Source: a virus
Strand: one strand, 5' to 3'
IMG/VR virus record: IMGVR_UViG_3300028836_000025
Location: 3,552 to 67,551 of that record
Length of the DNA stretch: 64,000 nt
A model generated the notes under the pieces. It was not told where the DNA came from and searched no databases. It saw only the letters and a list, made by a program, of their open reading frames with translations. The translations under genes were made by a program, and so were the position numbers. The first letter of the stretch is position 1. Each line of letters opens with the position of its first letter. Positions 1 to 37,301 of this stretch are shown one piece after another.

Positions 1-46
1 AAACTTCATACGAGTAGCGAGCTACAAGTCGGGTTATGTAAGACGG

Positions 47-1096: not shown

Positions 1097-1129
1097 ATAC
1101 GAATCACCATAGATAATATATATATGAAA
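1087..1129 (+). promoter_or_regulatory. conserved early intergenic motif, copy 2
   Basis: TACAAACTGAATACGAATCACCATAGATAATATATATATGAAA; repeat of 412-454. Confidence 0.55.
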
Positions 1130-1146
1130 CAAACAAATACAATGTA

Positions 1147-1527: not shown

Positions 1528-1529
1528 GT

Positions 1530-1830: not shown

Positions 1831-1836
1831 TTTAAA

Positions 1837-1983
1837 GGGGGTGAAAATGGTAACGCACACTGGACAGAAGACAGTATCTTCGCTGGAAGTTGGCCCGTAA
1901 ATCTACAAGATAGTAGGCCACCAACTCAAGCAAGACAGTATCTCAAAGCATTGCGTACGAGGGTTCGATTCCCTCCACCTCCA
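1837..1983 (+). ncRNA. tmRNA-like (tRNA-Ala-like domain) RNA, unusually short
   Basis: Acceptor stem GGGGGTG/CACCTCC with G3:U70, discriminator A1983, T-arm GAGGG-TTCGATT-CCCTC, unpaired D-loop with GG, P2-like CGCA/TGCG helix followed by a 3-nt linker; no anticodon arm. Confidence 0.7.
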
Positions 1984-1997
1984 CAAATTAAAATACT

Positions 1998-2285
1998 ATG
2001 AAAGATACAAATCAAGTACAAAAAGCCCTTGAATCCAAGGCAAAGAAAGAGCTGCAAAGAATTGTAGACGAGTTTGTTATATCACTAAATAAGCTAAACT
2101 CAACGTACCGCCAACCACCCTCGTACACTATGTGTGAGAGTCGTAACACTGATGCTAAGGTTTTTAGCTATATTAGACTTGGTTGCTTAGAGACTATACT
2201 TCACGACATGCTCGTTGAGGCATACTTAAGCCCTATGGTACACAAAAAGACACAAGAGCTATTAACAAAATTAGAATTACTATAA
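1998..2285 (+). CDS. hypothetical protein
   Basis: 95-aa ORF. Confidence 0.65.
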   Translation: MKDTNQVQKALESKAKKELQRIVDEFVISLNKLNSTYRQPPSYTMCESRNTDAKVFSYIRLGCLETILHDMLVEAYLSPMVHKKTQELLTKLELL

Positions 2286-7090: not shown

Positions 7091-7260
7091 TGAAAAATAA
7101 AAGAATAGTCTCAATATCCGCAGGTTTGTACGATAAATTGAGCAAAAGAATTGAAACTCAAGATAAGATAATTCTTACGCTAGAGATGCAACTATCTAAT
7201 GAGAGATTAAAGAATAAAAATCTAGAAAGACTAGTAACTACAAGAAACAAAAAACAATAA
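7078..7260 (+). CDS. small coiled-coil hypothetical protein
   Basis: 60-aa ORF, probable start at ATG 7090. Confidence 0.5.
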   Translation: MGKIMKNKRIVSISAGLYDKLSKRIETQDKIILTLEMQLSNERLKNKNLERLVTTRNKKQ

Positions 7261-7267
7261 AAGATTA

Positions 7268-7573
7268 ATGGAAGATTTTGATACAGAGGATTTATTCGGT
7301 GGTAGAGAAGAGGTGCTTAAAAATTTAGGTAACCACATAGCAAAAGCTTTAATACGGTTAGCTAAAAATGAACCTTTAGAAGAATATGAAATAGGTGACT
7401 CTGAGGATTATCTAGTGGGTGAACTCGCTAGGTGCTTAACTCTACAGAACCTATACTTAGACCGGGAAGAGTACGAGAAGTGTGCGATTATGAAATTGCG
7501 CATTATAGTGTTAAACAAAAAGCTGGGATTAGACTTGACTGGCTCAATGGAGGATTTTGATGAAGAAGATTAA
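7268..7573 (+). CDS. acidic hypothetical protein with UVR-like motif
   Basis: 101 aa; REEYEKCA..K resembles a UvrB/C (UVR) hairpin. Confidence 0.6.
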   Translation: MEDFDTEDLFGGREEVLKNLGNHIAKALIRLAKNEPLEEYEIGDSEDYLVGELARCLTLQNLYLDREEYEKCAIMKLRIIVLNKKLGLDLTGSMEDFDEED

Positions 7574-7619
7574 AGAACCAATAGAAGATAATGATATTAT
7601 CTTTGAGACCTTGTAGAAC

Positions 7620-7663
7620 GTGACAAAAGCCTCTAATAAGATAATGTAACAGGCTAATGTCAC
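7620..7663. repeat. imperfect inverted repeat (candidate operator/origin site)
   Basis: GTGACA-AA-AGCCT...AGGCT-AA-TGTCAC upstream of the HTH gene; related copy at 63911-63953. Confidence 0.5.
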
Positions 7664-7676
7664 ATATTTAAACCCA

Positions 7677-8300
7677 ATGCCACAGTACGAAAGAAACTTA
7701 GAAGTATTTAATAGACGGCGCATAGTTTATACTAGGCTACCTATTACAGACGTGCCTACTATAGACACTTCTAAGTACATGTATTATGAAGACGGCACCT
7801 ATGAGTGCTATGAGCTATTCCGTAGCAAAGCTAAGATCACGACTTATAGAAGTCTAAAGTGGCACTTGCTTGTGCTATGGTATTTAAACCCATCTTTAGA
7901 TCAAGATGAGTTTATGGATGTAGCTCAAATTATTGCGGACAAAAGCAACGGGTTTACTAGTTTTAGTATATACCCGGAAATACTACGGAAAATAGTATAT
8001 GAGGTTAGCATGTTAGATTTAGAAGAACCCCCTAAGAATAAGTTACGTAAGGTTATATTTAAACTACATAATGGTTTAGAGAAAGTAGAGAAACTTAGCA
8101 TCGTAGGAGCTCTGATAGGTAGATCAAATAAGATCCATCCTGACGACATCTATGCGTGTATGATAGACTTACATGACATGGGTCAAAAGATTACGTTAAA
8201 ACGCGTCTCTGAGATCCTTAGGGTATCCTTAAGAACAATACATAGGCATATGCCGGAAGAATTAAAAAGAGAAAAAGAATTATTAAATAAAGAATTATGA
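7677..8300 (+). CDS. DNA-binding protein with C-terminal helix-turn-helix
   Basis: C-terminal KITLKRVSEILRVSLRTIHRH is HTH-like. Confidence 0.7.
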   Translation: MPQYERNLEVFNRRRIVYTRLPITDVPTIDTSKYMYYEDGTYECYELFRSKAKITTYRSLKWHLLVLWYLNPSLDQDEFMDVAQIIADKSNGFTSFSIYPEILRKIVYEVSMLDLEEPPKNKLRKVIFKLHNGLEKVEKLSIVGALIGRSNKIHPDDIYACMIDLHDMGQKITLKRVSEILRVSLRTIHRHMPEELKREKELLNKEL

Positions 8301-14499: not shown

Positions 14500-14669
14500 A
14501 ACACCTAAAAGACCATGGATTAAACTACTTTCAGCATATGGGTGTGGCATTTTGTTACGCGATAGAACTAGCTTTCATGCTAGTAGCCGCGATCATACAC
14601 GGGCTTTTCCCGTTTGTGCTCAAGACATACGTCACCGATAGAATGAAAGAATTAATAAACCAAGAATGA
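14496..14669 (+). CDS. small membrane protein, DUF6356-like (57 aa, not in ORF track)
   Basis: MKHLKDHGLNYFQHMGVAF...AAIIHGLFPF; ATGA overlaps at both ends. Confidence 0.6.
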   Translation: MKHLKDHGLNYFQHMGVAFCYAIELAFMLVAAIIHGLFPFVLKTYVTDRMKELINQE

Positions 14670-15022
14670 TGAAAAATTTAATAACAATAGCGTTTATGCT
14701 GGCATGTTCAGCCATAAGCGCGCAAGACACGACTTGTGTTATGATTACACAAAACGAGATAATAAACTTCGACTATCAAACTAGCGTAGTAATAGACCGA
14801 GAGCCCATTGGGGACGCGATCTTGCTACGAGTTAAAGAAACAGAAGTCCTTTGTTTACACCTACATGATTTAAAGCGAAGGTTCAGAGATGTCACAACCG
14901 CTTTTGATGATGGTGATTATCGTTACGATACTTTTAAAAGTAAAGACGATGTATACTACACCCCATTTGGGTTTGGTGGCATGGTTGTTACGATCGGCCC
15001 ACCTAGAAAAACGAGAAACTAA
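14666..15022 (+). CDS. Sec-exported hypothetical protein
   Basis: Signal peptide MMKNLITIAFMLACSAISA|Q. Confidence 0.65.
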   Translation: MMKNLITIAFMLACSAISAQDTTCVMITQNEIINFDYQTSVVIDREPIGDAILLRVKETEVLCLHLHDLKRRFRDVTTAFDDGDYRYDTFKSKDDVYYTPFGFGGMVVTIGPPRKTRN

Positions 15023-21275: not shown

Positions 21276-21989
21276 TTAATTATTTTTACCTACAAAATAG
21301 GAGTCTTGTGTTGAGTTGTAATAGAACCCTCCAAAGGCTGGTTCTGGTATCTGTGTGTCTGTTGCTTCGCTTAATACTATTTTTCTATCGCTAGAAACCT
21401 CTAGCCCAGTAAACGCCGCACTAGAACCTGATACTATAAACTGTATAGAGCTAGTTTGAAAATAAGAATCGGGCGCATCGTTACCAGCTTTAAACTTAAT
21501 TCCCGAACCACCAGTTCTAAGAGTTCCGTCATCACTAAACCCCTCTGTCCGTATCTCTCCTAGTAAATCCCCATCAACCGTATATCCACCTGAACCTGTA
21601 TCTTTTTTACTAAATATTATCTCGGAATTACCAGGATTCGTATCATGGTTTTTAACCGTTAAAGTTCTTGTATTTAAAGTATGCTTCCACGCCACTGTAT
21701 TAACCCCAGTTGTGGTTAAGATGTCATCCACTAATCCCCCAGAAGGTAGACCACTACCGCCTATGCTTGACCAGTGGTTTGGATTTGTCCAAGTTGGGCC
21801 TGTAAAAATATACGTGGTACTCAAGTCCAACACCGTAGCCATAAACCCGGGTGTCTGCATATTGGTGTGCAAACCATCCCTTTCGTCGATGTCAGCAAAA
21901 ATACCAGACCCTATAACTTGATTCTTAGTTAAGTCTAAGATATAGTCATTATCATTATTGTGCCGTACAGGTCCTGGAAATATTGGCAT
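21276..21989 (-). CDS. tail fibre-associated protein
   Basis: GLPSGG...L...W fibre-like segment; lies in the tail cluster. Confidence 0.6.
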   Translation of the reverse strand: MPIFPGPVRHNNDNDYILDLTKNQVIGSGIFADIDERDGLHTNMQTPGFMATVLDLSTTYIFTGPTWTNPNHWSSIGGSGLPSGGLVDDILTTTGVNTVAWKHTLNTRTLTVKNHDTNPGNSEIIFSKKDTGSGGYTVDGDLLGEIRTEGFSDDGTLRTGGSGIKFKAGNDAPDSYFQTSSIQFIVSGSSAAFTGLEVSSDRKIVLSEATDTQIPEPAFGGFYYNSTQDSYFVGKNN

Positions 21990-23029
21990 TATGCGAAGCT
22001 TACGTTTATAGGTTGACCCACACCGAACCCTCCTTTAGATTTGGATTTATATAAAAGATATGATACGCTAGCGCCGTGAGTATTCGTTCTAGATACAACA
22101 ACTGGGTCATAAAAGTCAGGCAAAACACCCGTGTTACTGACTTCTATATCATACACTGCACCCCAACTAGCCGGGTATGCTATCCATAGAAATTTAGTAT
22201 CGTCAGTAGTATCAGCATCCCCTTGGAAGGAGAAACTACTTTTAGTTACTAATGCATTATAAGTATCGAGTTCCCCAAAAAGCGCTTCTATATTGTTTGT
22301 GTTAGCACTCGCTTCAGCAGAGCCACCCGCTCTAATGCGGTCACGGAACTTAAAGCTAATATAGTTGGATATTATAGGTAAGTTGCTTCCGCTACCATTA
22401 TCCACCGCTTCTAAGTGAAAACTCTCTGTATATCCATTGTAGCCTACAGATTCATTATTATACACGTTTATGGTAGGTAACTGAAAAGTTCCCCCAGTAG
22501 TAGATATACCATCATACAATGCGCTATTGTTGTTTCTATGGAACGAAACGCTGTCATCAACAGTCACACTACTATTAGCAATAGAGTAGTTTAAACTATA
22601 AAGTTTAAAACCTTGCCCAACTTCCAAAGTAAAATCATCTTCGTTATAATCACTAAAATCCCCCCAAGTTCCATCGACTTCAAAAGCTACATTTACAAGA
22701 TTTATACTCATAGTAGTCTTAATATATGGGTTGAGTATCTCTCTCAATAACCCCTCAATAGATGTTCCCGCTGGGATAACAGTGCTCCCTACCGTCTCGT
22801 TATATATAGCAGGCAGGTGCACGAAAGCCCCGTCTGAATTAGTCATAATTATATCCTCGGCTAGAGACCCAGCGTCTCCGCCCTCTCCTCCGAGAATCGT
22901 ATATATTAAATCTGATATAGTATAGTACTCAGTATAATCTTGATTATGCTTTCTCTCCCATAATTTTTTATCTGGAGTGTCACCATCCTTAGTATTAATG
23001 AGTCTATCTCCTGGTATTTGAGTAGCCAT
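21989..23029 (-). CDS. structural protein with shared N-terminal anchor motif
   Basis: N-terminus DR.I.T...P.KK..ERK...DYTEY.TISDL shared with 23049-23528; WIAYPASWG. Confidence 0.65.
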   Translation of the reverse strand: MATQIPGDRLINTKDGDTPDKKLWERKHNQDYTEYYTISDLIYTILGGEGGDAGSLAEDIIMTNSDGAFVHLPAIYNETVGSTVIPAGTSIEGLLREILNPYIKTTMSINLVNVAFEVDGTWGDFSDYNEDDFTLEVGQGFKLYSLNYSIANSSVTVDDSVSFHRNNNSALYDGISTTGGTFQLPTINVYNNESVGYNGYTESFHLEAVDNGSGSNLPIISNYISFKFRDRIRAGGSAEASANTNNIEALFGELDTYNALVTKSSFSFQGDADTTDDTKFLWIAYPASWGAVYDIEVSNTGVLPDFYDPVVVSRTNTHGASVSYLLYKSKSKGGFGVGQPINVSFA

Positions 23030-23048
23030 TATCTATTTATTAGGTGTT

Positions 23049-23528
23049 TTAACTAACAGTCCCTAAAGCAGCGGTCTTCCAAACAGCAACCCCTGGGGCA
23101 TCAATCACCCCTGTGGTGCCAGCTGTTATGCATACGTATATAGCGCTTGTACTAATAAGTATTTCGCCAACAACTCCCGCGGGCGCGTTAGTAGTCCAAT
23201 CGTGACCATCTAGATCTCCAATAAACTTCGCCGCCTCGACATTGCTTGTCGCTATGAAATTCTCCGCTGAGATATCAACTGTTGAAGCCATGTTCCCATT
23301 ATTATCAAGGGTGACTTCTTCAACCTCGTCTAAAGCGTTGCTATCGTTGTACCAGGCTAAAGTGCTAGCCGCGGTGCTGGTCACGCCTTCCCCAGCTTCA
23401 ACGGTGGATACTAAATCACTTATCGTAAAATACTCTGTATAATCTTCGTCCCACTTTCTTTCAAATTTCTTCTTCTCTGGAATCGTAGGGGAGTATGTCC
23501 CTATTATTCTGTCTAATCCTATCGCCAT
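23049..23528 (-). CDS. structural protein with shared N-terminal anchor motif
   Basis: Paralogous N-terminus; C-terminal G..GEI.....IYVC...W..AAL fibre-type motif. Confidence 0.65.
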   Translation of the reverse strand: MAIGLDRIIGTYSPTIPEKKKFERKWDEDYTEYFTISDLVSTVEAGEGVTSTAASTLAWYNDSNALDEVEEVTLDNNGNMASTVDISAENFIATSNVEAAKFIGDLDGHDWTTNAPAGVVGEILISTSAIYVCITAGTTGVIDAPGVAVWKTAALGTVS

Positions 23529-23547
23529 AATTTTATATCTTTAATTA

Positions 23548-24690
23548 TTAGTATAACACTGTTATCGTTCCGTTAAACTCAAATACACTATCTGATACAG
23601 CACTATGGGCTGTAATCGTATATACATAAACACCAGTTGCCACATCAGCCTCCCACTCATCAAGAGATGAAGCGCTTATCCAAACAAGTCCGCCCCATCT
23701 GTTATATATTCTCACCTCCCATTGATCCCAACAGGCTCCATCTGCGGTAACCTGCCAAGTATCATTCCACCCATCCCCATTGGGGGTTACAGCGTTGGGA
23801 GCAAATATCGATGTCTCATCACAAGAAAAACCTAAGTCACACGCCTCACCAGTCTCGCAGTCTACATATACAGTCTCAACCACATACTCTGTCACTGTGT
23901 CTGTTTCGTAGATGTAAACATTCTCATACACTACGATCTCCACGTATACAGTGTCTGTGCTGTATACCATTATATCTATCGTGTCTGTTACATATATATA
24001 CTCATATACAGTATCTGGCGGAAGAGTTACATACGTGGTATCATAGACATACTCTATTGTGTTTATATATTCTATGATAGTATCATATGATACTACCGTA
24101 TCAGTCTCATAGATATAAATAGTATCACATGGGCATAACCCATCGACTGGGAGAATGTTATCCCAGGGGTTATCATCAGGATAATCTTGAGAAGTACCTA
24201 TAGGGTTATACCAATCTGGATTTAAAGCCTGTGGCCCGTTAGAATAATTAATCTGCCAGATGAATACCTCGGCCCCCTCACAAAACGTCCCGTCATTATA
24301 CCACCCCATCCATCTCTCTAATATGGTTAAGGGATTACTAGTATCACTAACGTTCGCGTTAAGAGCCTCCGCCATGTTAAAGTTTAGCGTGTCCCCACTG
24401 TAAGCGTAGTTCCCTAGGTTACCATTGAAATGCTGCTCTTGGAAATCTAAGAATGAGTGTAATGGGAAACTCGCGAACTCATTAGTGGCAAGGGTGTCTA
24501 CTCCGTTAGATATCCCAAGATCTATATGGTCTATATATGTAGTGTCCACACCGTTACCGCACCCATTAGAATTATGGACTACGATTTGAATGTCTCCCGT
24601 CTCAAAATTCACATTAGTTAACTCAACATCACACTGCGCGGCGGCTGTGGTTATGATGAGCCAAGAAATAAGTGTAAAAATTAATCGCAT
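23548..24690 (-). CDS. Sec-exported protein with T9SS type B (gliding-motility-associated, CHU_C-like) C-terminal sorting domain
   Basis: Start ATG 24690; signal peptide MRLIFTLISWLIITTAAA|Q; DT(V/I)Y repeat stalk; C-terminal FAPNAVTPNGDGWNDTW...IYNRWG.LV...GVYVY...G.ITV. Confidence 0.85.
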   Translation of the reverse strand: MRLIFTLISWLIITTAAAQCDVELTNVNFETGDIQIVVHNSNGCGNGVDTTYIDHIDLGISNGVDTLATNEFASFPLHSFLDFQEQHFNGNLGNYAYSGDTLNFNMAEALNANVSDTSNPLTILERWMGWYNDGTFCEGAEVFIWQINYSNGPQALNPDWYNPIGTSQDYPDDNPWDNILPVDGLCPCDTIYIYETDTVVSYDTIIEYINTIEYVYDTTYVTLPPDTVYEYIYVTDTIDIMVYSTDTVYVEIVVYENVYIYETDTVTEYVVETVYVDCETGEACDLGFSCDETSIFAPNAVTPNGDGWNDTWQVTADGACWDQWEVRIYNRWGGLVWISASSLDEWEADVATGVYVYTITAHSAVSDSVFEFNGTITVLY

Positions 24691-25049
24691 AACGTTCCGT
24701 AATCTCCTAAAAATAATAACAAGTCTTGAGACCCAACCTCTCCGTCCCCATCTAAATCTGCGGGGCAAGGGGGTTGTATACAAGATGGGTAAGCTGGGTG
24801 TTCTGTTTGTAACGGGTACACAAACCCATCTCCAGATAAAATAAAAGTAGTTCCTATATCGGCGCATAATATAATAGTGTATCCACCAGTTGGTAAACCA
24901 AACCAGTGGGTCAACCCCTCGCAGTCTTGATACTGAAACGAGGTCCACTTAGAAGCGCCCACAGAGCTGAACACATGTTGATTACATTGTGCGGCTAAAC
25001 TAGAATATATGATCACACATAACAGTGATATAATTAAGTGCTTCAGCAT
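24681..25049 (-). CDS. Sec-exported Cys-rich protein with C-terminal dockerin/EF-hand-like motif
   Basis: Signal peptide ...SSLAA|Q; C-terminal CPADLDGDGEVGSQDLLLFLGDYGTLC. Confidence 0.75.
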   Translation of the reverse strand: MLKHLIISLLCVIIYSSLAAQCNQHVFSSVGASKWTSFQYQDCEGLTHWFGLPTGGYTIILCADIGTTFILSGDGFVYPLQTEHPAYPSCIQPPCPADLDGDGEVGSQDLLLFLGDYGTLCD

Positions 25050-25054
25050 ACTAT

Positions 25055-25513
25055 TTATATCTCTAAATACGTAGTTCTACCACCCCTCCGCACCGCTCTC
25101 AATACCCTACCTCTATTCTTACGGTGCTCTACATAGCTAACATGTATCCAGTCTGGGTTTTCGTCATCGCCAAATTCCCAAATTAATTGATCAAAGGTAA
25201 TACAATCTTTTATATGGTTAAACATCTCAGCGTTAGTCTTATGGCCGAAGGTATCGTCTAAATCTAAAGCCTGCCCCCGGCAGTGTTGTGAAGATCCGCT
25301 CCCACCCACAGCTCTATTAAGATCCTCGCTTCTATAAAAGCTATTAACTTTAATAGGGCCTTCAACCCATTTTCTCAAAGGTTCAAAAACCTTATAAGCC
25401 GTCACTTTCATTTCCTCCAAGACGCTCTCCGACGGAGTATTACTAATCCCTAATTTAGTAGCGGTGTTACTTCGCGTGCCTTCTCTATATGATATATGCG
25501 TGCTTATTCTCAT
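25055..25513 (-). CDS. peptidase M15 endolysin
   Basis: NSFYRS..LN.AVGGS.SSQH..GQA.D, FDQLIWEF, WIHVSY. Confidence 0.88.
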   Translation of the reverse strand: MRISTHISYREGTRSNTATKLGISNTPSESVLEEMKVTAYKVFEPLRKWVEGPIKVNSFYRSEDLNRAVGGSGSSQHCRGQALDLDDTFGHKTNAEMFNHIKDCITFDQLIWEFGDDENPDWIHVSYVEHRKNRGRVLRAVRRGGRTTYLEI

Positions 25514-25809
25514 TTTATGATAACTGATAGTAGTGGAGTAGTTCCAGATGTAACGATCTTCATACCTAGTACGGAGTTGTCAAACGAAAGCTCCTCTGTT
25601 AATAATAAGGTGGTTGCTACAGGTATAACTAAATCGTTAATGATATATGATAGGTTAGCGCTTCCGTCCTCTAGATATAAATCTATAGTAATATCGTCAG
25701 CCGCGCTGTAGTTGCTAAGTCTAACAGACCTCACATTCCCACGCGTGCCATATATAGGTATTAACTCCGTTACCGTGTTTGCGGTTATGTCAAATAATCC
25801 TCTTTCCAT
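25510..25809 (-). CDS. hypothetical structural protein
   Basis: 99-aa beta-rich ORF. Confidence 0.6.
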   Translation of the reverse strand: MERGLFDITANTVTELIPIYGTRGNVRSVRLSNYSAADDITIDLYLEDGSANLSYIINDLVIPVATTLLLTEELSFDNSVLGMKIVTSGTTPLLSVIIK

Positions 25810-25811
25810 TA

Positions 25812-25925
25812 TTATGTCTGTTGTGGTGGAGAGATCAACTCTATTATTAAGTTAACCTTTTCTATTACCTCCGCGAGTGTTGCCGTCTTAGGTAACTTGT
25901 CCGCAATGTCGTCTGAAGTTATCAT
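25812..25925 (-). CDS. small protein (37 aa, not in ORF track)
   Basis: MITSDDIADKLPKTATLAEVIEKVNLII...; ATGA overlap with the fibre gene stop. Confidence 0.45.
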   Translation of the reverse strand: MITSDDIADKLPKTATLAEVIEKVNLIIELISPPQQT

Positions 25926-27542: not shown

Positions 27543-30500
27543 TTAATCATGGTAGTAACATAAACCAGAAGAACTAGATGTTTTCATCTTACACCTTTTA
27601 CCGTCTTTCTTAACGTGACTACATTGTGTTTTCTTACCCGTGGTGTTTTGTTTTACTTTTTGGTGTATTGTGCAGAACGTCCCGTTACCCACGGGTTTTA
27701 AAGAGCATCTCTCTCCAGCTTTATTTACAGCGGCGCACGTAGTCTTTTTACCTTTCTTTCTTTCCTGCTTTTGATCTTTAATGAAACCCTCTTCTATAGC
27801 CGCTTCTTCAGCTTCTTTTTCAATTGCCCTTTCAATTTTCTTTTTTTCTTTTCTCTCTTCTTTTTCTACTGCTTTAATTTCTTTAACCTCCCCTTTTGCT
27901 GCAACGACATCTTGGTTTTTAATACCAAAACTCCACTTGCTCCACCCTAAGAGCATAGCCACTCTTTTCCATGTCTCGTGTTCCGCGTCTAATGACTCTG
28001 ATATGTTCTGAACTTTATTATACACCCTACTTAGCGGTAGGTTTGTCACTGCCTCGGTTCCGCTGAAGGCAGCATCGTATATAGGGTTATCTATATCTGC
28101 CTTGCTCATATGGTCGATTACATCTTTATTGTATTCCCATGTTTTTAAACCGCTGTATATTTTTCTAGCTTTAATACCTATTGGCGGAGACATGTTGAGA
28201 CCCTCTATCACTACGTTGCCCCAGTCTGGGTCTGTGTAGAAAACCCCATCATCCATTTTCTCGCTCTCCTTCATGAACTTCAAGATAACGTTTTTAATCG
28301 TTGCCACACCTACTCCAGCGATACCTGACCCACGTAGTATAGTGTCTATCATACCGTTAATAACCTTCTCTTTTTTCTTATCTGTGATCTGATCCTCTTC
28401 GTCGTCGCTAAATAACGCCGCGAACAAAGCTTGCTGCAACCCGTAGAAAATCATATTTTGAATAGTCCCGTAGTACACTATCCTAGATATATTAGCTTTC
28501 GTATCTCCCCTACCGTTAACTAAATCTAAAGTGGCTTTCTTAATTAACCTATTGTACTGCATAGGCGTGTTCTGGAAAGCAAGTATAAACTTACCAAGAG
28601 GTGATGCTTGCTGCTGAGATATTTTATCTTCTCTAGTAGACTGCTGAGTTTCCTCCGCTATCTCCATCATGTCCTCAAACGCTTTTGTCTCGGCTTCGGC
28701 CTGCATCATACCCTCTTTTAGGTATGTCTTAATCCTATTTCTATATAAGGTCGCACCGCCAGTAGCGATAGCAAAACTATCTGCCACCTGAGTTGGCGTA
28801 AAACCAAGTTGTAGTAAGTACGCAGTAGCGGCTTTGAATTTATTATTCGAGTCTTTTACTTGAGCCAATAGCTCTGCGGCATTAACATCTGTCTGTATAC
28901 CCGATCGTCTCTGTTTTAAAAACGGAGAGTTCATTATCATTGCCACGTCCTTCCAGTACTGAGGCTGGTTGGCAAACGCTCCAGCTGCTTTAAGCATATT
29001 GTTATCGCTCCAGTTAACGAAGTTAACATTAGAGATCATCTGCAACATCGCAGATCTAGCGTTCAAGAACATCGTTGTACCTATAGAACCATGTATCCAG
29101 TTGGTAAAGTTATTCACTATCCTTCCACCCTTCGATCTGGTACCGCCATTCTCCATCCGCCACAAGCTATCCTCTAAAGCTTCTCTAAAATTAGAACCGT
29201 ATACAGCTTCAATTTTATTCATGTTAGCTTCAGGGAATATAATATTCTTATTATCCACCCATTGTTGTAGGTGTGTACCTCTAGCTGCGTCTAATGCTTC
29301 TTTTAAATCTAAAGCCATATTCCCTCCAGTCCAATGAGCACCGGGGTCGACCATTCCACCTGCGGCATCGCTAACAGAATTAACACCTTGGGCGAACGCT
29401 AACGCTTGTGCGTTAGATTCAACAGCGTTTACTAACGCGGTGGCGTCCGCTTTGGATAGTCCAGGTATATCAAGACCCGCTTTGGCCCAGTTGTATACTC
29501 TTATAGCGTCTTCATACGCATACTCTGTACCGGGCACTTTCTTATTAAGCTTCTTCCTTACGTCAGGCATAGCCTTCCTAAGCTTTTTCATATCGCTAGC
29601 AGCTTGTTGCTGCATTATCTTATGCCGCCTCATACCTTTTGAAAACGGGTCAAATAGGTTTTCTTTAAACCAAGCGTGATGCTTATCCCCTTGTTTCCCT
29701 TTACCCATGAAAGCGTACATAAGCCCCGCGAAGTCATCGGCTGATGGCGGAACAAAGAACTTAAATTTACCTTTGTTTTTACCACGTTGTCTAGCTTTTG
29801 CCGCCGAGAACTTTTTATGTCTACCTACACCTTTAGTTTGTTCTAATATAATATCTAAATCAAGAGCTCCCTCATCTATGATATCGGACATCTTCTTCCC
29901 TCCAGTCTGGCTGAACTTGATCTTAGCCTGTTGGACTTTGCCTTTAACGTCAAAGCGGTTAAGCATAGCTTTAACTGGTCTATTAACGTAGTAAGATGGC
30001 CCCCTCTTTATCTGATAATCGGGTTTTGATATTATAAAAGTTCCACTTTTATACTTTGTGTCCTTTCCATAATATTTTAACTCTGCGCGACTCAAGCCTA
30101 CTTCATCCCACTCCCATCCTAACTTACTAGCCCAGAACTTTGTTAACCTACTATAAAGTCTAGTTCTACTTGTTTCTTTTGAAGCAAATGTAATAGCATC
30201 AACTTCGTTATTCTTTATAAAATCAAAAACACCATTCGACACAATACTTATAACTTCATGCGCACGACCTGTGTCCAGGATTTCCATTCCTGTCTTGCTG
30301 CTTGGTTTAGCACCTTCTAGTAAAGCGAACTCCAAATACCACTGACCTCCCCCGCCCGGTTCTTTTAGCGTTATGCGGTAGTGGTTATCGCCCACCTTAA
30401 AGTTAGCGTGATTATACGTCCCGAAATTTGTTTCCGTCCACTTCAAGTCACGCTTAGTGTTCATACTAAACTTGATCTTAGCCTGTTGGACTTTGTTCTT

Positions 30501-33500
30501 AACCTCGAGTTTATTTAAAGTCGCTTTGACAGCTTGAACATTTTGTATAGCGTCGTCCGCGAAATAGAAATCGTTGTACCCTTCTCCAACCTTCTCTGCT
30601 ATCCAGTTAGCTTTTGCCGATGCTTCTGATCTACCTAAACCCACGATGTTCTTAAGCGGTATATTTAAACCCTGCGCGTCTAAGAACTGTTTGATAGCCT
30701 TAGCAGACTCAGGGGCTCTAGCAGTTAGAATGAACATGTCATCTGCTCCAAACTTGCCATAAAGCTTCATGGCTTTATTAAACAGCGGGGCTGTCTCACC
30801 TTTAACAACTTTGTTAAACTCCGAGAAGTCGAACTTAACACCTTGAGCTAATAGATCTCCACCTTGCTTTGCGAACTCCTCTGCGTTTAATTTACCTTTA
30901 GTTCCATCAGGAAGAGTGTAAAGCACATTTGATTTAGTTGTAGCCAACGTATCGTCGAAGTCTAGTACTGTAATACCCTTACTAGATTTAGAAAACATCA
31001 CGTGAACTGGGTCACCTTCCATGTCAGTGAACGTCCGAGCTCTATCTGCATACTGCATAGGGAGTAAACCTTGCCCATCACCGTAATCAACTCGTGATCC
31101 AACGAATGCCCCATTGTTATACTCCCTAACCGTAATTAGAGAACTTGCAAAATGATCTCCGGTGTTGACGAGCTGTTGTGGACTGAGATGCTCCTCTGTA
31201 ATACCATGAAGTTCACCATCCTTGTTATAACGCTCAACAGATTCTAGGAACAATACAGGTTTCCGCTTCCTAATCCCAAGATCTGAAAGCGCCTCCTTAA
31301 AAGTATCACCGACGGAGCTTAAGCCATCTGGAGTATAAGTACTCCACACCTCTATCTTGCCGCTCTCTACACTACCTCTAGTGGCACCATAAACAGTATC
31401 TAACTTTTTACCCGTCTTCTCATCAAATGAGCCCCGCACATTTCTACCTTGACTATCAACGTGATCGTTCCCAGGTATCTCGTTGTATTTTACGTTATCC
31501 CTACTCCAAAATTCTACATCCCCAGCGTCCGAGAAACCTCCTTCCCTGCTCTCGGTTTTCATAGCTAATAACTTACCATCTTTAAATATGATCTGCTTAT
31601 TCCCATACTGGTCCCAGTACTCCTCAGCGGAGTCTGTTAGTTTACCATCGGTAGATTGTACTATACACCATGGGTTAGACTTCTTACCGAAGTGCTGGTT
31701 AACCTGATCACGCACAGCAAGTAGCCCGGGGGCGGGCGGTGTACGAACATATGGGGCGCCGGGGATTATTACGTCAGAGCGCGTGTCATCTATATCATAT
31801 ATAACAATGCCATTCTTTAACTCTTGTTTGTTAGTGAACGCCGCGACCTCATCAGGGTTAGTTGTCTTCTTTCCATCAACCTCCTCGCTATACTTCTCGA
31901 TTATCTCGTTTGGATTTTTAAAAGAGAATGGGTCAAGTTTTTTGGCTTTAGCTAACCTCTCTGCTTCAATAACTTTAAACCCGTCTTCAGGCAAGCGAAG
32001 TTTATTATGAACCATATAGTGAAGAGCTAGTTTCTCAAACTTGCTTTTATGCTTTGCAGCATATATAGGACTCTCCATATCTAGGTGGAACGAAGGACTA
32101 TCTAACCACTTGAATAAATCATCAACAAGTCCTTTCGCGATCTTCTTGTTCCAAACGTTATGCTTGAGCCCTATGCGGTTATTTATCAACCTCTGCTCGT
32201 ACTCAGCCCTATGGCTTTTAGAAAACCTTACATTAGAGTACCCGTCAGGGTTTATACCAGATGTAGCTGTTTTTATATCAGCTTCAGCTATGCTCTTTAT
32301 AATTTTCCCTCTGCCAGATCTAGACGCTTTAAAAGCTTGGTCCATGACTTTAGAGTCTTTAGATCTTACAGCTATATCACGTATACTAAACTCTGTATTA
32401 GCAGCAGCCTCACCATACACCTTGCCTTTATCTTTTGGGTTAAGGCTCTCTATAGCATACAGGTCGGGGTGACCAAAAGTGGTCATGTTATAATATCGCT
32501 GAGTTGAATTGTTTCCAATGATATATCCTATAGGCATCACCTTAGTTAATTTGACCTCACCAAAGATGTTGTCCATTGTAATAGGTATAACAGCCACCGT
32601 GTACTCTTTAAACAGTGCATTAAGATCAACGTTACCATCATTCATATAAGCGTCAGTCAATCGCATAATCATATAGTTAGTAGGTATCATATGCTCATAC
32701 CTAAACTTACCTTTATACTTCTTCCCGATCTTGTCTTTGAATATGTAACCTAGGTTAGCGGCCCTCTTTAGTGGCGACTGCATGTTGCTAGCCATACCCA
32801 TCATCACCATAGCAAAATCCTCCTTATCTAGTGCTCCATCTTTAATTTGATCCTTATAATGTTGAGCTATGTCTCTTGTAACTTGTTCAGACACCGCTGC
32901 CTGCTTCTTCCTTCCAGCGTAGTCTCTATCAACCATCGCCGCCTTAGAAGTTTCAGCTAAAAGACTAGTGTTTATTTTTTTACCATCAATAGTTTGTGTC
33001 TTTTTAAGATTCCCCGCTTCAGTAAGCTGCACATCATCCCCGAAAATCTCTTTTAAAACGTTTTTATTCCAATCTTTCTTATCTTCAAAAAACTGGTATC
33101 TTTGAGCTCCATCACCCTTAACGCCAACCTCTACAGCGACTCCATCTTTAACCACAAAGTTTCCCCTACCAATCTTAGCGCTCGTTGTGTACATCCCACT
33201 TGCGTGTATAAGCATCATCAATGCTTTTTCTTTACCATATTTTTTAACCCACTTTTCACCAAGAGTAACGATCTCAACGCGACCAGTGTTTATCTTGTCT
33301 ACGTTGTCAAAGCTTTCAGCGAAGGACAAGGTTTTACCATCCCCGCCTTTTAAATCTAAAAACTCTGCTAGGTTTAGAGCTAGCTCCGCTGCCTTTACGT
33401 TATCAGTTAAATATTCGTTTAAAGTTTGTTCGGGTTTTGTATTAAGATTAGCGTGCCGTTTGTTTATCGCACCATACCTATTAACGATCTTAGCTATGTC

Positions 33501-36500
33501 TTTTCCAAGAGCGGTAACTTTACTTCTTGGATAGTGTTTACCATACACGTCTCTAACAACTTGTATTACAGCGCTCTCATCGTTAGGGTTAACTTTCTTA
33601 AGAGCCTTACTTAAAACCGGAAGGTTGTTATAAAAAGTCTTTCTCTCAAGCGGTTGAAGTTTTCTTACGGACTTACTAAACTTAACACCTGGATCCCTAT
33701 CTATTTGTTTGCCTATGATAGACACTTCGTTTTCAGCTTGAACTTGTCCAGTTAAATCTAGTATGTCTGATCTACGGTTAGATACCTCAGGAGTTTGAAT
33801 CGTCTCCATAGTGGCATCGAACCCAAGTTCAACACCCATCTCCATAGCTAACTTATCTTTTCTAGTACCCAACGTAGACGCACCTACCTTATACCCAAGT
33901 ACATCTCCCATGTCCTGACCTCTAAAGAATGCCATAACTTTCTTAGAACCAGGATATGGTAACTTAGTAATTAGAGTTGGACCAGATAGTCTGTTAGTAT
34001 TTTTAGGTAGTAAACCCTCGCTAACTAACTTATCAACCTCCGTGGACTTAGTAATCCTTTCAGACCTAGTAAATATTCTATTTTCAGGAGCTATATTACG
34101 CTCCATCTGGAGCAGAGTTTCTTTTGGGAGAAACTTAAACACAATAGGAAAGTTCTTAGTTAAAAACTCATTATAGGTTTCACTTTTACCTATCATATCT
34201 TGGATAGGTTTTTTGAGTTCAGTTCTAAAGGCTTTTTGTAGTGCTGCTTTAAACTTCTTAGAGCTTACCTCAGGAAGCTTAGTACCGAATGTCTTCGCGA
34301 CAGCTTTACGAACCTTGTCCATCATAGATTCTTCTAAACCTAATTCCGTTCTAAGTCCCGAATACTGATCTGACTCAGACTTGCCCTGTTCAACTAGTTT
34401 AGTACGCCTAGCTTGAGCAGCCATAGACATGTCCTGCTCTTCAAATGATGTTACATCGGCGTCAGTCTCTGCTGCTATTTGAATTACCGGTGCTCCTTCA
34501 GACGTCTTAGCATCGATGTCTTTCGACCCTCTCATAGCTTCGTCAACTTTATACTCCGAGTTGTACACGTTACCAGCTTTGTTACCTATCTGGCTATTTA
34601 TATACGCGAATAAGTTATCGTTCTGCTCCGGCTTAAACCTCTTTATGTGTGGTGTCATTTCAGAGTAAACCTTCTCTACGAAATCTCTTGGCACGGGTTT
34701 GACTTTGTACTTAGAAGCTATCAACGCGTCAAAGTAACCTTGCTCCTTTATCTCTTTTATAGCCGCATCTGATCCACCTCTTCTCCAAGATTTATTTGTG
34801 TGGCTAGTTCCTAGTTCTTTAACGTTTTTAACAGCCGCTTTCTTCTGGTCGGAAGACATAGATGTTTTTGTATCATCTACTTCAACCTTACCTTTAGTTG
34901 CCTTTGCTATCCCACTACTCAAAGCACCTTTATGTATACTCTTGTTATACTCTTTTAGAAAGCTGTACACATCTTTACCAGTGTCAAACTTTATCTGCTT
35001 AAATCCAGCAGCCCTAAGTATCGGTTTAATCACATTGCCAATCCTTTCAAACACACTCTCATTATATGTTATATCCCCATTTTGTATAGCATCCGACGCT
35101 AGAGTTATCCACTCATCAGGATTAGCCTTCATATACTCTGGGGTGTAGTTTTCACTAGCTCTTTGCTCCACCGTTGACCATTGACTTCCTATCTCTGTTT
35201 TAAGTTCACTAATAACATTCTCAGATATATCCCCAGCTTTCATAGCCTTTCTAAGTATACCGTGTAACAACTCGTGATTACCGACATTCACGGCTCCAGT
35301 AGCTCTTGCAACAGTTTTGTTTATGATGATCTTATCTCCTTTGATAAACCCGTCTGAAGCAGCGGCTTCCTCTCCATATCGCGCTTTAATTTGATCGATA
35401 GTCAAACTGTCGTCAACCTCTAAACCATATAAAACACTATGTTTCTTTGCAAATTCTAGATTACTTTTGAATACTTTATCAGCAACACTCTCTTTAACAG
35501 CTTCAGCTGACTTCTTCCTAGCTTTAACGTCTTTAGTTCTACCGTCAACTTTCGCGTACGTATTAATTATATCAGCAATCTGTGTTTCCACGCCCTCTAA
35601 CTTAACGTCTGCGCCTGGAACAGCAAATACACCTTTCTTTTTAGTATCACTCTCGGCTTTAGCTCGCTTCTTTTCAAGTTCTACTAAAGCTTTCCTATCG
35701 TTAATGTCATTTACCTTCGCGTCAATCTGGGTTTCTAATATCGCGTCGTTTTGTTTGGACTGCACAAAGCTGTTTAAGTTAAGATCATTCTCGACCTCGA
35801 TGTTTATTTTGGCTAAATCTTCAGGCGCTGTATTTTTATTGTTCACAATATCTTCTACAGTTTTTCTACTAACGACTTCACCGTTTATTTTATATTTAGG
35901 TGTTTGTCCTTTTAAAGATTTATACAGTATATCAGAAACATTAACAATACCTTTAGCTTCACCAATAGCCTCTAAAGTAGCGTCACCTAAATCAATTTCT
36001 TGACCCGCGGCGACTTGTCCTCCAACCTCACCCACAAAACCCCCACCCATCTCAATACTTGTTGTAGCCCCCGCTACTTTAACAGCGGTTCTTTTACCAG
36101 TAGCTTTACCAAGTCTAACAATAGAACTACCTACACCCCTAGATAAACCCATAGTTAAACCTTCAATCGCCCCTATAGTTAAACCCCTAGCTAATGAAGC
36201 AGATTTTATTCTGTCTATAGCGTCTTCATCTTCTAAGATCGCCCTTACATTCTCTTTATTAAAATCTAAATCTCCTAACTCTTCTTTTAATAAGTCGGTT
36301 AAAGTTAAACCAGTCTCCATAGCCCCCACTAAACCCGCGGTAGCTCCAGCTAAACCCCCTGTGATAGCCCCAGCCCCAGCTCCAAATACAGCACCAGGCC
36401 CAGCCCAAGCAGTTGCTAGAGCCCCAGCCCCAGCCCCAACCGTAGCGCCACCCGCAGCGACGCCTGCGGCACTCGCTATTGTTTCCGGGGCTGTTAAAGA

Positions 36501-37301
36501 AGTACCCATAGTAACTACAGATGTAGTTAAAAATTGTGGAACAAACCCAGGGTTTTGGGCTATAGCTTTAAGTGTGCCCCATATCCCACCACCCTCTTCA
36601 GCTTGAGTTTTCTGGAACTCAACCTGCTCTCTAGTAGGGTCCAGAGCATCTATATCTTCTGCGGCGGTTATATAGGCTTGCAAATCCTCATCTGATATAC
36701 TAGCTCCCTGCCTGTAAACATCGAAAGCCTCATCAACGCTTCCACCAGTCGCGTATCCCTGTTGAGCGGATACCCATAAATCTTCAAAGAAACCACCATC
36801 TTTAGGTAACTGCATCTCCCCTACGGATGCCGCTGTGCCGACCCCGTTCTCCGGTGACCATTCTCCTTTTAAGTACTGGGTGAGTTGCGCCTGCTCCGAC
36901 TTATCAAAGCCCGTGCTATCAACCCCAACCGACCTATTACCTTCGCTATCAACTAATGTTGTTGTTATATTGGCTTTTCTTTGGGAAAAAGTTCTATATC
37001 TAAGCTCGTCGTCAGTCATAGGTCTAGAAGTATAACCTCTATCAGCTAATACCGGTGGTAGACCTGGACCTTTACTAGTCGGCTCTGCCACTACAGCCTC
37101 TTCACTGCTAGGCGGAGTTGCCACTGCCTCAAAGCCATATCTATTCTTAAAACTATCTAAGTCTTTAGAGTATAACTCTTTCTCGCTTAAGCCCTGGTGT
37201 AAAGCTTTAGCGCCTTCTTCATTCCCATACTTCTGTTGAAACTCCTCGAAAGATTTACTATATAAACCTTGTTCTTGGAGCTTTTGCCATAATTCTTCCA
37301 T
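27543..37301 (-). CDS. giant (3252 aa) modular internal virion/ejection protein (polyvalent-protein-like)
   Basis: Hydrophobic G/A-rich segments, HELLH zincin motif, YEHMIP, NPWCI, HAD DFDDT...FADD domain, C-terminal tandem C-x9-C-x10-C-x2-H fingers; follows two smaller ejection-type genes. Confidence 0.8.
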   Translation of the reverse strand: MEELWQKLQEQGLYSKSFEEFQQKYGNEEGAKALHQGLSEKELYSKDLDSFKNRYGFEAVATPPSSEEAVVAEPTSKGPGLPPVLADRGYTSRPMTDDELRYRTFSQRKANITTTLVDSEGNRSVGVDSTGFDKSEQAQLTQYLKGEWSPENGVGTAASVGEMQLPKDGGFFEDLWVSAQQGYATGGSVDEAFDVYRQGASISDEDLQAYITAAEDIDALDPTREQVEFQKTQAEEGGGIWGTLKAIAQNPGFVPQFLTTSVVTMGTSLTAPETIASAAGVAAGGATVGAGAGALATAWAGPGAVFGAGAGAITGGLAGATAGLVGAMETGLTLTDLLKEELGDLDFNKENVRAILEDEDAIDRIKSASLARGLTIGAIEGLTMGLSRGVGSSIVRLGKATGKRTAVKVAGATTSIEMGGGFVGEVGGQVAAGQEIDLGDATLEAIGEAKGIVNVSDILYKSLKGQTPKYKINGEVVSRKTVEDIVNNKNTAPEDLAKINIEVENDLNLNSFVQSKQNDAILETQIDAKVNDINDRKALVELEKKRAKAESDTKKKGVFAVPGADVKLEGVETQIADIINTYAKVDGRTKDVKARKKSAEAVKESVADKVFKSNLEFAKKHSVLYGLEVDDSLTIDQIKARYGEEAAASDGFIKGDKIIINKTVARATGAVNVGNHELLHGILRKAMKAGDISENVISELKTEIGSQWSTVEQRASENYTPEYMKANPDEWITLASDAIQNGDITYNESVFERIGNVIKPILRAAGFKQIKFDTGKDVYSFLKEYNKSIHKGALSSGIAKATKGKVEVDDTKTSMSSDQKKAAVKNVKELGTSHTNKSWRRGGSDAAIKEIKEQGYFDALIASKYKVKPVPRDFVEKVYSEMTPHIKRFKPEQNDNLFAYINSQIGNKAGNVYNSEYKVDEAMRGSKDIDAKTSEGAPVIQIAAETDADVTSFEEQDMSMAAQARRTKLVEQGKSESDQYSGLRTELGLEESMMDKVRKAVAKTFGTKLPEVSSKKFKAALQKAFRTELKKPIQDMIGKSETYNEFLTKNFPIVFKFLPKETLLQMERNIAPENRIFTRSERITKSTEVDKLVSEGLLPKNTNRLSGPTLITKLPYPGSKKVMAFFRGQDMGDVLGYKVGASTLGTRKDKLAMEMGVELGFDATMETIQTPEVSNRRSDILDLTGQVQAENEVSIIGKQIDRDPGVKFSKSVRKLQPLERKTFYNNLPVLSKALKKVNPNDESAVIQVVRDVYGKHYPRSKVTALGKDIAKIVNRYGAINKRHANLNTKPEQTLNEYLTDNVKAAELALNLAEFLDLKGGDGKTLSFAESFDNVDKINTGRVEIVTLGEKWVKKYGKEKALMMLIHASGMYTTSAKIGRGNFVVKDGVAVEVGVKGDGAQRYQFFEDKKDWNKNVLKEIFGDDVQLTEAGNLKKTQTIDGKKINTSLLAETSKAAMVDRDYAGRKKQAAVSEQVTRDIAQHYKDQIKDGALDKEDFAMVMMGMASNMQSPLKRAANLGYIFKDKIGKKYKGKFRYEHMIPTNYMIMRLTDAYMNDGNVDLNALFKEYTVAVIPITMDNIFGEVKLTKVMPIGYIIGNNSTQRYYNMTTFGHPDLYAIESLNPKDKGKVYGEAAANTEFSIRDIAVRSKDSKVMDQAFKASRSGRGKIIKSIAEADIKTATSGINPDGYSNVRFSKSHRAEYEQRLINNRIGLKHNVWNKKIAKGLVDDLFKWLDSPSFHLDMESPIYAAKHKSKFEKLALHYMVHNKLRLPEDGFKVIEAERLAKAKKLDPFSFKNPNEIIEKYSEEVDGKKTTNPDEVAAFTNKQELKNGIVIYDIDDTRSDVIIPGAPYVRTPPAPGLLAVRDQVNQHFGKKSNPWCIVQSTDGKLTDSAEEYWDQYGNKQIIFKDGKLLAMKTESREGGFSDAGDVEFWSRDNVKYNEIPGNDHVDSQGRNVRGSFDEKTGKKLDTVYGATRGSVESGKIEVWSTYTPDGLSSVGDTFKEALSDLGIRKRKPVLFLESVERYNKDGELHGITEEHLSPQQLVNTGDHFASSLITVREYNNGAFVGSRVDYGDGQGLLPMQYADRARTFTDMEGDPVHVMFSKSSKGITVLDFDDTLATTKSNVLYTLPDGTKGKLNAEEFAKQGGDLLAQGVKFDFSEFNKVVKGETAPLFNKAMKLYGKFGADDMFILTARAPESAKAIKQFLDAQGLNIPLKNIVGLGRSEASAKANWIAEKVGEGYNDFYFADDAIQNVQAVKATLNKLEVKNKVQQAKIKFSMNTKRDLKWTETNFGTYNHANFKVGDNHYRITLKEPGGGGQWYLEFALLEGAKPSSKTGMEILDTGRAHEVISIVSNGVFDFIKNNEVDAITFASKETSRTRLYSRLTKFWASKLGWEWDEVGLSRAELKYYGKDTKYKSGTFIISKPDYQIKRGPSYYVNRPVKAMLNRFDVKGKVQQAKIKFSQTGGKKMSDIIDEGALDLDIILEQTKGVGRHKKFSAAKARQRGKNKGKFKFFVPPSADDFAGLMYAFMGKGKQGDKHHAWFKENLFDPFSKGMRRHKIMQQQAASDMKKLRKAMPDVRKKLNKKVPGTEYAYEDAIRVYNWAKAGLDIPGLSKADATALVNAVESNAQALAFAQGVNSVSDAAGGMVDPGAHWTGGNMALDLKEALDAARGTHLQQWVDNKNIIFPEANMNKIEAVYGSNFREALEDSLWRMENGGTRSKGGRIVNNFTNWIHGSIGTTMFLNARSAMLQMISNVNFVNWSDNNMLKAAGAFANQPQYWKDVAMIMNSPFLKQRRSGIQTDVNAAELLAQVKDSNNKFKAATAYLLQLGFTPTQVADSFAIATGGATLYRNRIKTYLKEGMMQAEAETKAFEDMMEIAEETQQSTREDKISQQQASPLGKFILAFQNTPMQYNRLIKKATLDLVNGRGDTKANISRIVYYGTIQNMIFYGLQQALFAALFSDDEEDQITDKKKEKVINGMIDTILRGSGIAGVGVATIKNVILKFMKESEKMDDGVFYTDPDWGNVVIEGLNMSPPIGIKARKIYSGLKTWEYNKDVIDHMSKADIDNPIYDAAFSGTEAVTNLPLSRVYNKVQNISESLDAEHETWKRVAMLLGWSKWSFGIKNQDVVAAKGEVKEIKAVEKEERKEKKKIERAIEKEAEEAAIEEGFIKDQKQERKKGKKTTCAAVNKAGERCSLKPVGNGTFCTIHQKVKQNTTGKKTQCSHVKKDGKRCKMKTSSSSGLCYYHD
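29914..29940. repeat. 27-bp exact direct repeat, copy 1 (within KVQQAKIKF coding)
   Basis: AACTTGATCTTAGCCTGTTGGACTTTG, identical at 30469-30495. Confidence 0.9.
30469..30495. repeat. 27-bp exact direct repeat, copy 2
   Basis: Identical to 29914-29940. Confidence 0.9.

Follow-up and report, generated by a model that had tools for sequence, protein, structure and literature searches.

A two-gene cassette of a crAss-like phage encodes a putative type B cargo for the host type IX secretion system and a small secreted partner

We analysed a two-gene cassette carried by a 64,000-nt stretch of viral DNA (the window; positions 3,552 to 67,551 of IMG/VR record IMGVR_UViG_3300028836_000025). One gene encodes a 380-aa protein, here called the cargo, with a signal peptide, an acidic head, a stalk and a C-terminal domain (CTD) of type B belonging to the T9SS (type IX secretion system); the other encodes a 122-aa secreted partner. 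Each of the two has a Sec signal peptide whose cleavage leaves Gln-Cys exposed. The cargo probably (roughly 60%) leaves the infected cell via the host T9SS, is held there by a host shuttle of the PorP/SprF type and displays an immunoglobulin (Ig)-like head. An earlier note, made from the letters of the window, had named this gene as phage-encoded cargo for the host T9SS. That proposal is well supported at the level of sequence by the signal peptide, the type B CTD and the Flavobacteriaceae-phage lineage to which the DNA belongs.

The cargo open reading frame (ORF) lies on the minus strand and spans 23548-24948 if read from a GTG codon; an ATG at 24690 gives 380 aa. In each of the 36 aligned family members the sequence opens at the corresponding site with M[RK] and a hydrophobic stretch, and the start was therefore placed at the ATG, in agreement with the gene limits given before (23548-24690, minus strand). 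Residues 1-19 (MRLIFTLISWLIITTAAA; 24634-24690, minus strand) form the signal peptide, with the cut before Gln19, as judged from the translation and its conservation. Gln19-Cys20 is invariant in 36/36 aligned sequences, and the leader residues before it vary. Sec signals were called throughout by inspection and conservation (here MR, a hydrophobic run and AAA/Q). Gln at +1 follows the Q-rule described for Bacteroidetes signal peptides (PMC5837995, PMC10653852), and Porphyromonas phage proteins have likewise been noted to obey it (PMC10367356). The mature protein begins with the head (residues 20-188; 24127-24633, minus strand), a predicted acidic, Cys-bearing beta-sandwich resembling Ig, fibronectin type III (FN3) and carbohydrate-binding modules (CBM), which belongs to a phage-restricted family; its 169 residues include 24 Asp or Glu vs 1 Lys or Arg, and five Cys. 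The stalk that follows (residues 189-277; 23860-24126, minus strand) was delimited by composition and consists of irregular, beta-prone repeats of the TDT[IV]xEY type, with T, Y, V, I, D or E at 81 of 89 positions, 19 acidic residues and no Lys or Arg. The repetition is irregular at the protein level, and Tandem Repeats Finder returned no tandem repeat in the stalk DNA. The remainder, residues 278-380 and the stop codon (23548-23859, minus strand), comprises a Cys-rich linker (C278, C284, C290) and the CTD. Thus the signal peptide ending AAA/Q, the acidic domain of unknown kind and the repeat stalk of the earlier note were all recovered.

The CTD assignment, for which that note had suggested a profile search, also stood. 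The Pfam-matched core (residues 297-363; 23602-23802, minus strand) scored 56.5 bits against PF13585 (CHU_C; E 3.2e-15, cut-off 27), and residues 297-350 scored 36.3 bits against TIGR04131 (cut-off 35). Profile searches returned no type A CTD match in the cargo. With profile positions 3-74 of 86 matched, the domain sits at the very C-terminal end; the 17 residues beyond the match end in FNGTITVLY. The strings PNxxTPNGDGxND, YNRWG and GVYVY are all present; in SprB, five motifs, A to E, are reported to be needed for secretion (PMC12618676). The cargo has eight conserved Cys and the partner six, even sets of the kind that proteins folding in the periplasm would be expected to have. Neither protein matched PADLOC or PHROGs, and the cargo matched no Pfam structural family.

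The partner gene (24681-25049, minus strand) occupies the ORF between the endolysin gene and the cargo gene, upstream of the latter, whose start it overlaps by 10 nt. Its signal peptide (residues 1-20) is followed by a mature protein of 102 aa that begins with the invariant string QCNQHVF; Q21-C22 is invariant in 30/30 aligned sequences, and the family alignment contains six invariant Cys and two invariant His. Residues 94-119 (CPADLDGDGEVGSQDLLLFLGDYG; 24693-24770, minus strand), closed by Cys95 and Cys121, resemble a dockerin calcium loop. When the partner-family profile was compared with PDB sequences, the best match was the dockerin 2y3n_B (E 1.8e-4), both repeats of which align to this one segment. 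The bacterial protein P0156 ends in two tandem repeats, to each of which the segment is 72% identical; when the C-terminal tandem repeats of a second bacterial protein, P0157, are included, the identities range over 72-80%. The partner as a whole scored 15 bits against NF041540 (GC-type dockerin; cut-off 29). Since it has a single calcium-binding segment instead of two and falls under this cut-off, its identification as a dockerin was rejected, and we call it dockerin-like and no more.

The earlier note had stated that no partner is encoded. For PorP/SprF this held: PorP_SprF (PF11751) was sought in all six frames of the complete 67,551-nt record without a match, while the same search gave 8 matches in a Flavobacteriaceae genome, and PorP_SprF was found in 0/28 other cassette-bearing viral records, mostly incomplete ones. 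For type B substrates, a cognate shuttle gene close by is usual but not universal. The near-obligate 122-aa partner at 24681-25049 had, however, been overlooked. It has 189 relatives at E<=0.01, with identities of at least 61% among the 120 matches listed. In the Atlas it belongs to a cluster of 706, of which the 119 members with a recorded taxon are without exception viral; a search of GenBank phages returned no partner. One related protein (P0155, 220 aa, from one contig) joins the first 73 residues of the partner to unrelated sequence. Because the partner is the most conserved component and the TDTxEY motif is the sole feature that all cargo variants share, we suspect that it binds or chaperones the stalk; our guess is that it does so via the calcium loop, perhaps as a periplasmic escort. 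A complex prediction with the head (20-190), the linker and CTD (270-380) and the mature partner, with the stalk (189-277) omitted, scored 0.00, which speaks neither for nor against such an association.

The two genes travel together. A scan seeded with the cargo gave 19 viral loci. In 15 of them the partner precedes the cargo gene, either abutting it or separated from it by no more than about 470 nt; in the other four it lies 2.5 kb away (two loci), is lost to the contig end (one) or was not found (locus L018). Seeding with the partner gave 60 viral loci, the largest contig measuring 178 kb, and these were scored with hidden Markov models (HMMs) built from our own alignments. Of the 60, 55 have a cargo-family gene, abutting downstream in 36, abutting upstream in 12 (hence abutting in 48/60, in either order), within 600 nt in 5 and further off in 2; the five loci that lack it are all cut by the contig end. 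A type A CTD protein is also encoded in 9/28 cassette-bearing viral records, which suggests that use of the T9SS is recurrent in these marine phages. One of these proteins comes from L006, a 64-kb record of a phage related to that of the window: two genes upstream of the cassette region, a gene (L006 2449-4584, plus strand) encodes 712 aa that include a signal peptide and a T9SS domain of type A (PF18962, 39 bits).

The surroundings of the cassette vary. Flanking genes differ between groups and include terminase, GroEL, queuosine-type and nucleotide-metabolism genes as well as small ORFs of very large phages, several of these names being based on reading of N-terminal sequences. Terminases flanking the cassette are 46-48% or ~22% identical to that of the window, and the large terminase subunit (TerL) varies from 22% to 65% across backgrounds. 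Because the flanking genes are unrelated from group to group, the cassette appears to be a mobile accessory unit and not a fixed lysis or tail module. In the window it directly follows an M15 endolysin gene (25055-25513, minus strand; PF08291, 55.6 bits; phrog_894, E 1.7e-25), and in L006 it also follows an endolysin gene, of a different family. The placement in a late operon after the endolysin, as described in the earlier note, therefore applies to the window and to L006; elsewhere the neighbours are terminase, queuosine-type or nucleotide-metabolism genes.

Several loci have additional genes within or beside the cassette. In L010, an 829-aa DUF285/BspA-type leucine-rich-repeat protein with no evident signal peptide is encoded between partner and cargo (5515-8001, plus strand), and in L007 a 159-aa DUF5675 ORF (92.6 bits; 7507-7983, plus strand) separates the two genes. 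L103, L112 and L154 have homologues of the DUF5675 ORF ~3 kb upstream of their cassettes. In L155, two more genes whose signal peptides end before Gln stand beside a reversed-order cassette (1-2156, minus strand); they encode a 398-aa protein and a 314-aa ORF running off the end of the locus, with weak Ig-like and SdrD-B-like matches under the cut-offs.

The head and the partner appear to be absent from bona fide bacterial genomes. A search of 1.84 billion representative sequences with the head returned 7 proteins at E<=1e-3, five of them family members and two marginal (the GEVED-repeat protein P0033, E 5e-5, and the leucine-rich-repeat protein P0034, E 9.5e-5). In a set of one genome per species (185,579 species), the best 80 cargo loci match from residue 167 onward only, that is, the CTD with or without some stalk, and none of these 80 covers the head. 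The partner occurs in the same set at a single locus, L160, on a 61.6-kb contig filed under a Pseudomonadales metagenome-assembled genome (MAG). As this contig carries homologues of the GroEL block of the phage studied here and its own cargo gene, we consider it a phage contig binned into the MAG. Among GenBank phages, the cargo matched through its CTD only, in two uncultured phages of >630 kb.

Within the family, at least three head types were distinguished: that of the window, a larger group with a CGCNEFT insert, and a short form. Further diverged forms occur in reversed-order cassettes. The head types have recombined with two or three CTD variants, which score ~160, ~104 and ~90 against our HMM, and the stalk varies from 50 to 271 aa (median 95; 57 family members). 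Median identities over 42 unique pairs place the partner (77%, minimum 63) slightly ahead of the head (73%, minimum 19) and well ahead of the CTD (47%), and the notion of the CTD as the most conserved module was rejected on these pairwise values. The ratio of nonsynonymous to synonymous substitution (dN/dS; NG86), computed for 25 type-2 loci from pairs with dS of 0.05-1.5, is lowest in the partner (0.07) and rises through the CTD (0.09) and the head (0.10) to 0.13 in the stalk. Purifying selection on every piece indicates that these are working genes, and the variation comes from module swapping rather than from fast point change.

Structure prediction provided further information on the head. 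An AlphaFold2 (AF2) model of the head only (58 sequences) reached a predicted local distance difference test (pLDDT) score of 80.8 and a predicted template modelling (pTM) score of 0.81, and shows a beta-sandwich with two short helices. The full-length model (24 close relatives) had a mean pLDDT of 54 and was unusable for the head; in it the stalk, as a monomer, scored ~25 and the CTD ~72-82, with four long strands. Foldseek returned no PDB entry for the head model at E<=1e-3. VIA-align placed it best on Ig, FN3, pilin and carbohydrate-binding sandwiches (Z 5.0-5.4), which is in the range of a common fold. A profile of the head alignment (A3) gave 0 matches to PDB sequences, and the ESM Atlas gave no usable match for the head. 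In BFVD the model matched two viral proteins, both of the same family. The database name of one of them is 'Gliding motility-associated C-terminal domain-containing protein [Virus NIOZ-UU157]', so that members of the cargo family are already in databases under an automatic name; a literature search found no paper on this homologue. The modelled head looks non-enzymatic, and a binding module would be the plain reading.

The source record is 67,551 nt long with an IMG/VR completeness of 100%, and the window covers 64 kb of it. The source contig is a complete 67.5-kb crAss-like phage. Terminase, portal and capsid-type proteins are encoded on the same (minus) strand as the cassette, and further genes of the record encode a short-tail-fibre-like protein, GroEL, the M15 endolysin and a class II ribonucleotide reductase. 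A 1877-aa protein (42264-47897, minus strand) has the N-terminus of a Crassvirus muzzle protein (PF25731, 52.9 bits), and a 3252-aa giant protein (27543-37301, minus strand) has a C-terminal DUF5763 as its sole match. A TerL search of GenBank phages gave 87 records, from phages of Flavobacterium (68), Cellulophaga (15), Tenacibaculum (2) and Maribacter (1) and from one uncultured phage, the last at 62.7% identity. Muzzle N-terminus, giant protein and terminase relatives together point to a crAss-like podophage of marine Flavobacteriia. The four named host genera are gliding bacteria that possess a T9SS. As the earlier note had observed, no integrase is visible: searches of the record found neither a tyrosine integrase (control search 14/14) nor a serine recombinase (control search 12/14).

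The cassette is an authentic part of this phage. An identical cargo protein is present on 5 contigs, the longest of 67,760 nt, and the 3.5-kb stretch around the cassette was recovered from 20 runs of 14 studies with hydrothermal vent, subsurface and marine metagenome labels. The gene junctions are spanned by contigs assembled in runs that belong to two studies: that between the cargo gene and its downstream neighbour (22786-24196) in record 2 of run X1, which is possibly the source sample itself, that between cargo and partner (24517-24878) in record 12 of run X2, and that from the partner through the endolysin to the next gene (24849-25846) in record 13 of X2. In runs X4 and X6, the contigs leave parts of the stretch uncovered. 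The GC content of the cargo region agrees with its flanks. Since independent contigs bridge both gene junctions, the cargo gene is not a chimera, and the chimeric host fragment that the earlier note had allowed for was not found.

Taken together, these data suggest the following route. Both proteins would first be exported by Sec, after which the host SprA translocon would take up the cargo. A host shuttle of the PorP/SprF type would then pull it out, as happens with those type B substrates of Flavobacterium johnsoniae that are termed orphans. Type B substrates are reported to need cognate or shared PorP/SprF shuttles to exit the translocon; a single shuttle, whose gene lies elsewhere, serves three orphan substrates, and whether a protein ends up on the gliding track or statically anchored is decided by its CTD (PMC12618676). 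Type B proteins are described as staying bound to PorP-like proteins at the surface (PMC9143113). The cargo would likewise remain bound to the shuttle with its CTD uncut, and the acidic stalk would hold the Ig-like head off the surface of the infected cell as a short fibre, with the 102-aa partner acting together with it.

What such a fibre does can be proposed with less confidence; receptor masking, superinfection exclusion, a jammed T9SS and altered motility, all put forward in the earlier note, are candidates. The foremost candidate effect, which we put at somewhat below even odds, is that the fibre takes up one of the host's type B shuttles or hides a surface receptor. Neither additional phages nor released progeny would then adsorb to the infected cell or its debris. 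It is possible, if less probable, that the cargo is a plain adhesin that keeps the infected cell on particles or neighbours. A more elaborate version is doubtful: the CTD would capture one PorP/SprF shuttle and displace its adhesin, partners would dock along the acidic TDTxEY stalk by means of the calcium loop, the resulting fibre layer would block adsorption of rivals and progeny, and swapping of heads and CTDs would retarget the coat to other hosts.

Several observations weigh against T9SS-dependent display and the effects proposed for it. The TIGR04131 cut-off is exceeded by a mere 1.3 bits, and the presence of a T9SS in the host is deduced from the hosts of related phages. The role of the partner is a guess and the weakest link of the explanation; no fusion of partner and cargo was found (none of 3 longer partner proteins is fused to the cargo), and the partner sequence tracks head and CTD type loosely (Spearman 0.35 and 0.10). 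The lack of any sign of diversifying selection within head type 2 (dN/dS 0.10) gives weak support for an arms race. No RNA run is among the listed runs that hold the cassette stretch. Finally, the cargo gene of the window sits among tail-fibre-like genes, a position that a role in the virion would explain too.

The strongest of the competing explanations, itself unlikely, is that the cassette jams the T9SS or gliding machinery: the CTD, the periplasmic partner or both would titrate the host shuttle or the GldK track and stop secretion and motility. Conservation of the CTD and the partner fits this, as does the failure to find a shuttle gene. Shuttles are reported to be specific and limiting (PMC12618676), and SprF and PorG to be disulfide-bonded to GldK (PMC12635249); the partner is a Cys-rich periplasmic protein. 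However, no free thiol is evident in the partner because its invariant cysteines number six, an even count, and a jammer needs no conserved head and no stalk of 50-271 aa under purifying selection.

Still less likely is an accessory function in lysis, in which the two secreted proteins would stand in for spanins and assist the endolysin by breaching the outer membrane, perhaps by keeping the SprA translocon from closing. Both proteins are exported, and spanins are not evident in this phage. The cassette stands directly after the M15 endolysin gene in the window and after a non-homologous PHROG endolysin in L006; L007 has the DUF5675 ORF between the cassette genes, and L010 has an M15 homologue 3 kb downstream. 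On the other hand, most of the 12 contexts inspected have no adjacent lysis gene, and the neighbours there are a terminase and QueC/QueE-like and dCMP-deaminase-like genes (named from N-terminal sequences only). The proteins also have no membrane anchor, and the long stalk and Ig-like head resemble an adhesin and not a membrane disruptor. The rule for a lipoprotein signal (lipobox) differs from the Gln-Cys arrangement, and because Gln precedes Cys in 30/30 partners there is no lipobox. A two-component spanin, which calls for an anchor in the inner membrane on one protein and a lipobox Cys on the other, was rejected on similar grounds: the hydrophobic runs of 14-16 residues are followed by a cleavage site, and Gln stands before Cys in 30/30 partners and 36/36 cargos.

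We regard it as very improbable that the cargo is a tail fibre or decoration protein of the virion, its CTD merely a CHU_C fold and its signal peptide unused for export. Such a protein would fit the position of the gene between a tail-like gene (phrog_677) and genes with a common N-terminal module typical of fibres, as well as the Ig-like head and a stalk that may be an oligomeric fibre, given its pLDDT of ~25 as a monomer. It would leave unexplained the signal peptide with its invariant Gln-Cys at the cleavage site in 36/36 members, the eight conserved cysteines, which suit the periplasm and not the cytoplasm, and a CTD above the curated cut-offs for a secretion signal; moreover, there is no PHROG structural match, and elsewhere the cassette lies among early or metabolic genes. 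A chimeric assembly or a host fragment inside a viral contig can be dismissed, given the bridging contigs, the 20 runs from 14 studies, the identical protein on 5 contigs, the matching GC content and the presence of the cassette on 60 viral contigs, the sole 'bacterial' locus (L160) being a misbinned phage contig.

Other genes of the window bear on the phage more generally. Immediately downstream of the cargo gene, two genes encode proteins of 159 and 346 aa (21989-23528, minus strand) with a common 43-residue N-terminal module (residues 6-48 vs 8-50; BLASTP 56% identity, E 6e-14), after which they diverge. Neither has a Pfam or PHROG match, and the pair resembles alternative receptor-binding tail fibres that could be mounted on a common adaptor. 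The GroEL-type chaperonin (60684-62252, minus strand; phrog_5725, E 9e-134) has a small co-chaperonin-like ORF downstream of it, which is also found in L010. A third small exported protein, of 118 aa, is encoded in the early/replication region (14666-15022, plus strand). Its signal peptide ends SAISA/QD and thus obeys the Q-rule; the protein is ~60% identical in L006 and L012 and has no Pfam or PADLOC match.

Flavobacterium hosts are reported to mutate gliding and T9SS genes to resist phages (PMC9804748). If true, the supply of a phage-encoded type B substrate to the T9SS would give the virus a direct grip on this very machinery of the cell surface. The cassette, two genes in ~1.5 kb, is simple and readily cloned, and it is common in marine viral contigs (60 contigs; a partner Atlas cluster of 706), where both proteins are otherwise unannotated. 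It could be used to address how a type B CTD selects its shuttle and final destination, as the CTD here, if it works, does so without a cognate shuttle gene, and natural CTD variants have already been recombined with different heads.

Proteins with T9SS sorting domains were described on gut phage contigs by de Jonge 2019 (PMC6949934), and type A CTD proteins in 'Cryophage' by Bellas 2020 (PMC7468147). The general idea of phage T9SS cargo is therefore already in print, and the present case is less new than the earlier note implied; what is new is the type B form with an obligate partner. The earlier cargo, like this one, was identified by bioinformatics only and was read as hijacking, perhaps for competition or superinfection exclusion (PMC7468147, PMC6949934). 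The type A domains of Cryophage are described on enzymes or on a PA14 protein (PMC7468147); here a type B domain is attached to a fibre-like binder with a travelling partner gene. Type A cargo is routed by PorV and the attachment complex, whereas type B cargo is anchored to its shuttle and remains uncut. Our literature search found nothing on type B cargo in phages, on the head family or on the partner, and supplementary gene lists may name such proteins.

Among bacterial proteins, the closest counterparts are the orphan substrates of F. johnsoniae (Fjoh_1123, Fjoh_1720, Fjoh_4934) and SprB, which share with the cargo a Sec signal, a C-terminal type B CTD and an adhesin-like extracellular part. 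The orphans are described as lacking an adjacent shuttle gene and borrowing Fjoh_1677 (PMC12618676), and the phage cargo likewise comes without a shuttle gene. The cargo differs from the orphans and SprB in that its gene belongs to a phage that looks lytic, neither head nor stalk has relatives in bacteria, and the gene with which it is linked is that of the small secreted partner and not PorP/SprF or PorE; with 380 aa it is also tiny compared with SprB. The partner, for its part, recalls cohesin-dockerin modules and GC-type dockerin anchors in ending with a DxDGDG loop followed by a DLLxFL helix. In contrast to dockerins, it has one repeat and not two, and no cohesin was identified. In its proposed effect, the cargo resembles Llp of phage T5, a small envelope lipoprotein that acts on FhuA and shields the infected cell and debris from adsorption; the means would differ, the cargo being a predicted fibre delivered by the T9SS and not a small lipoprotein acting on FhuA.

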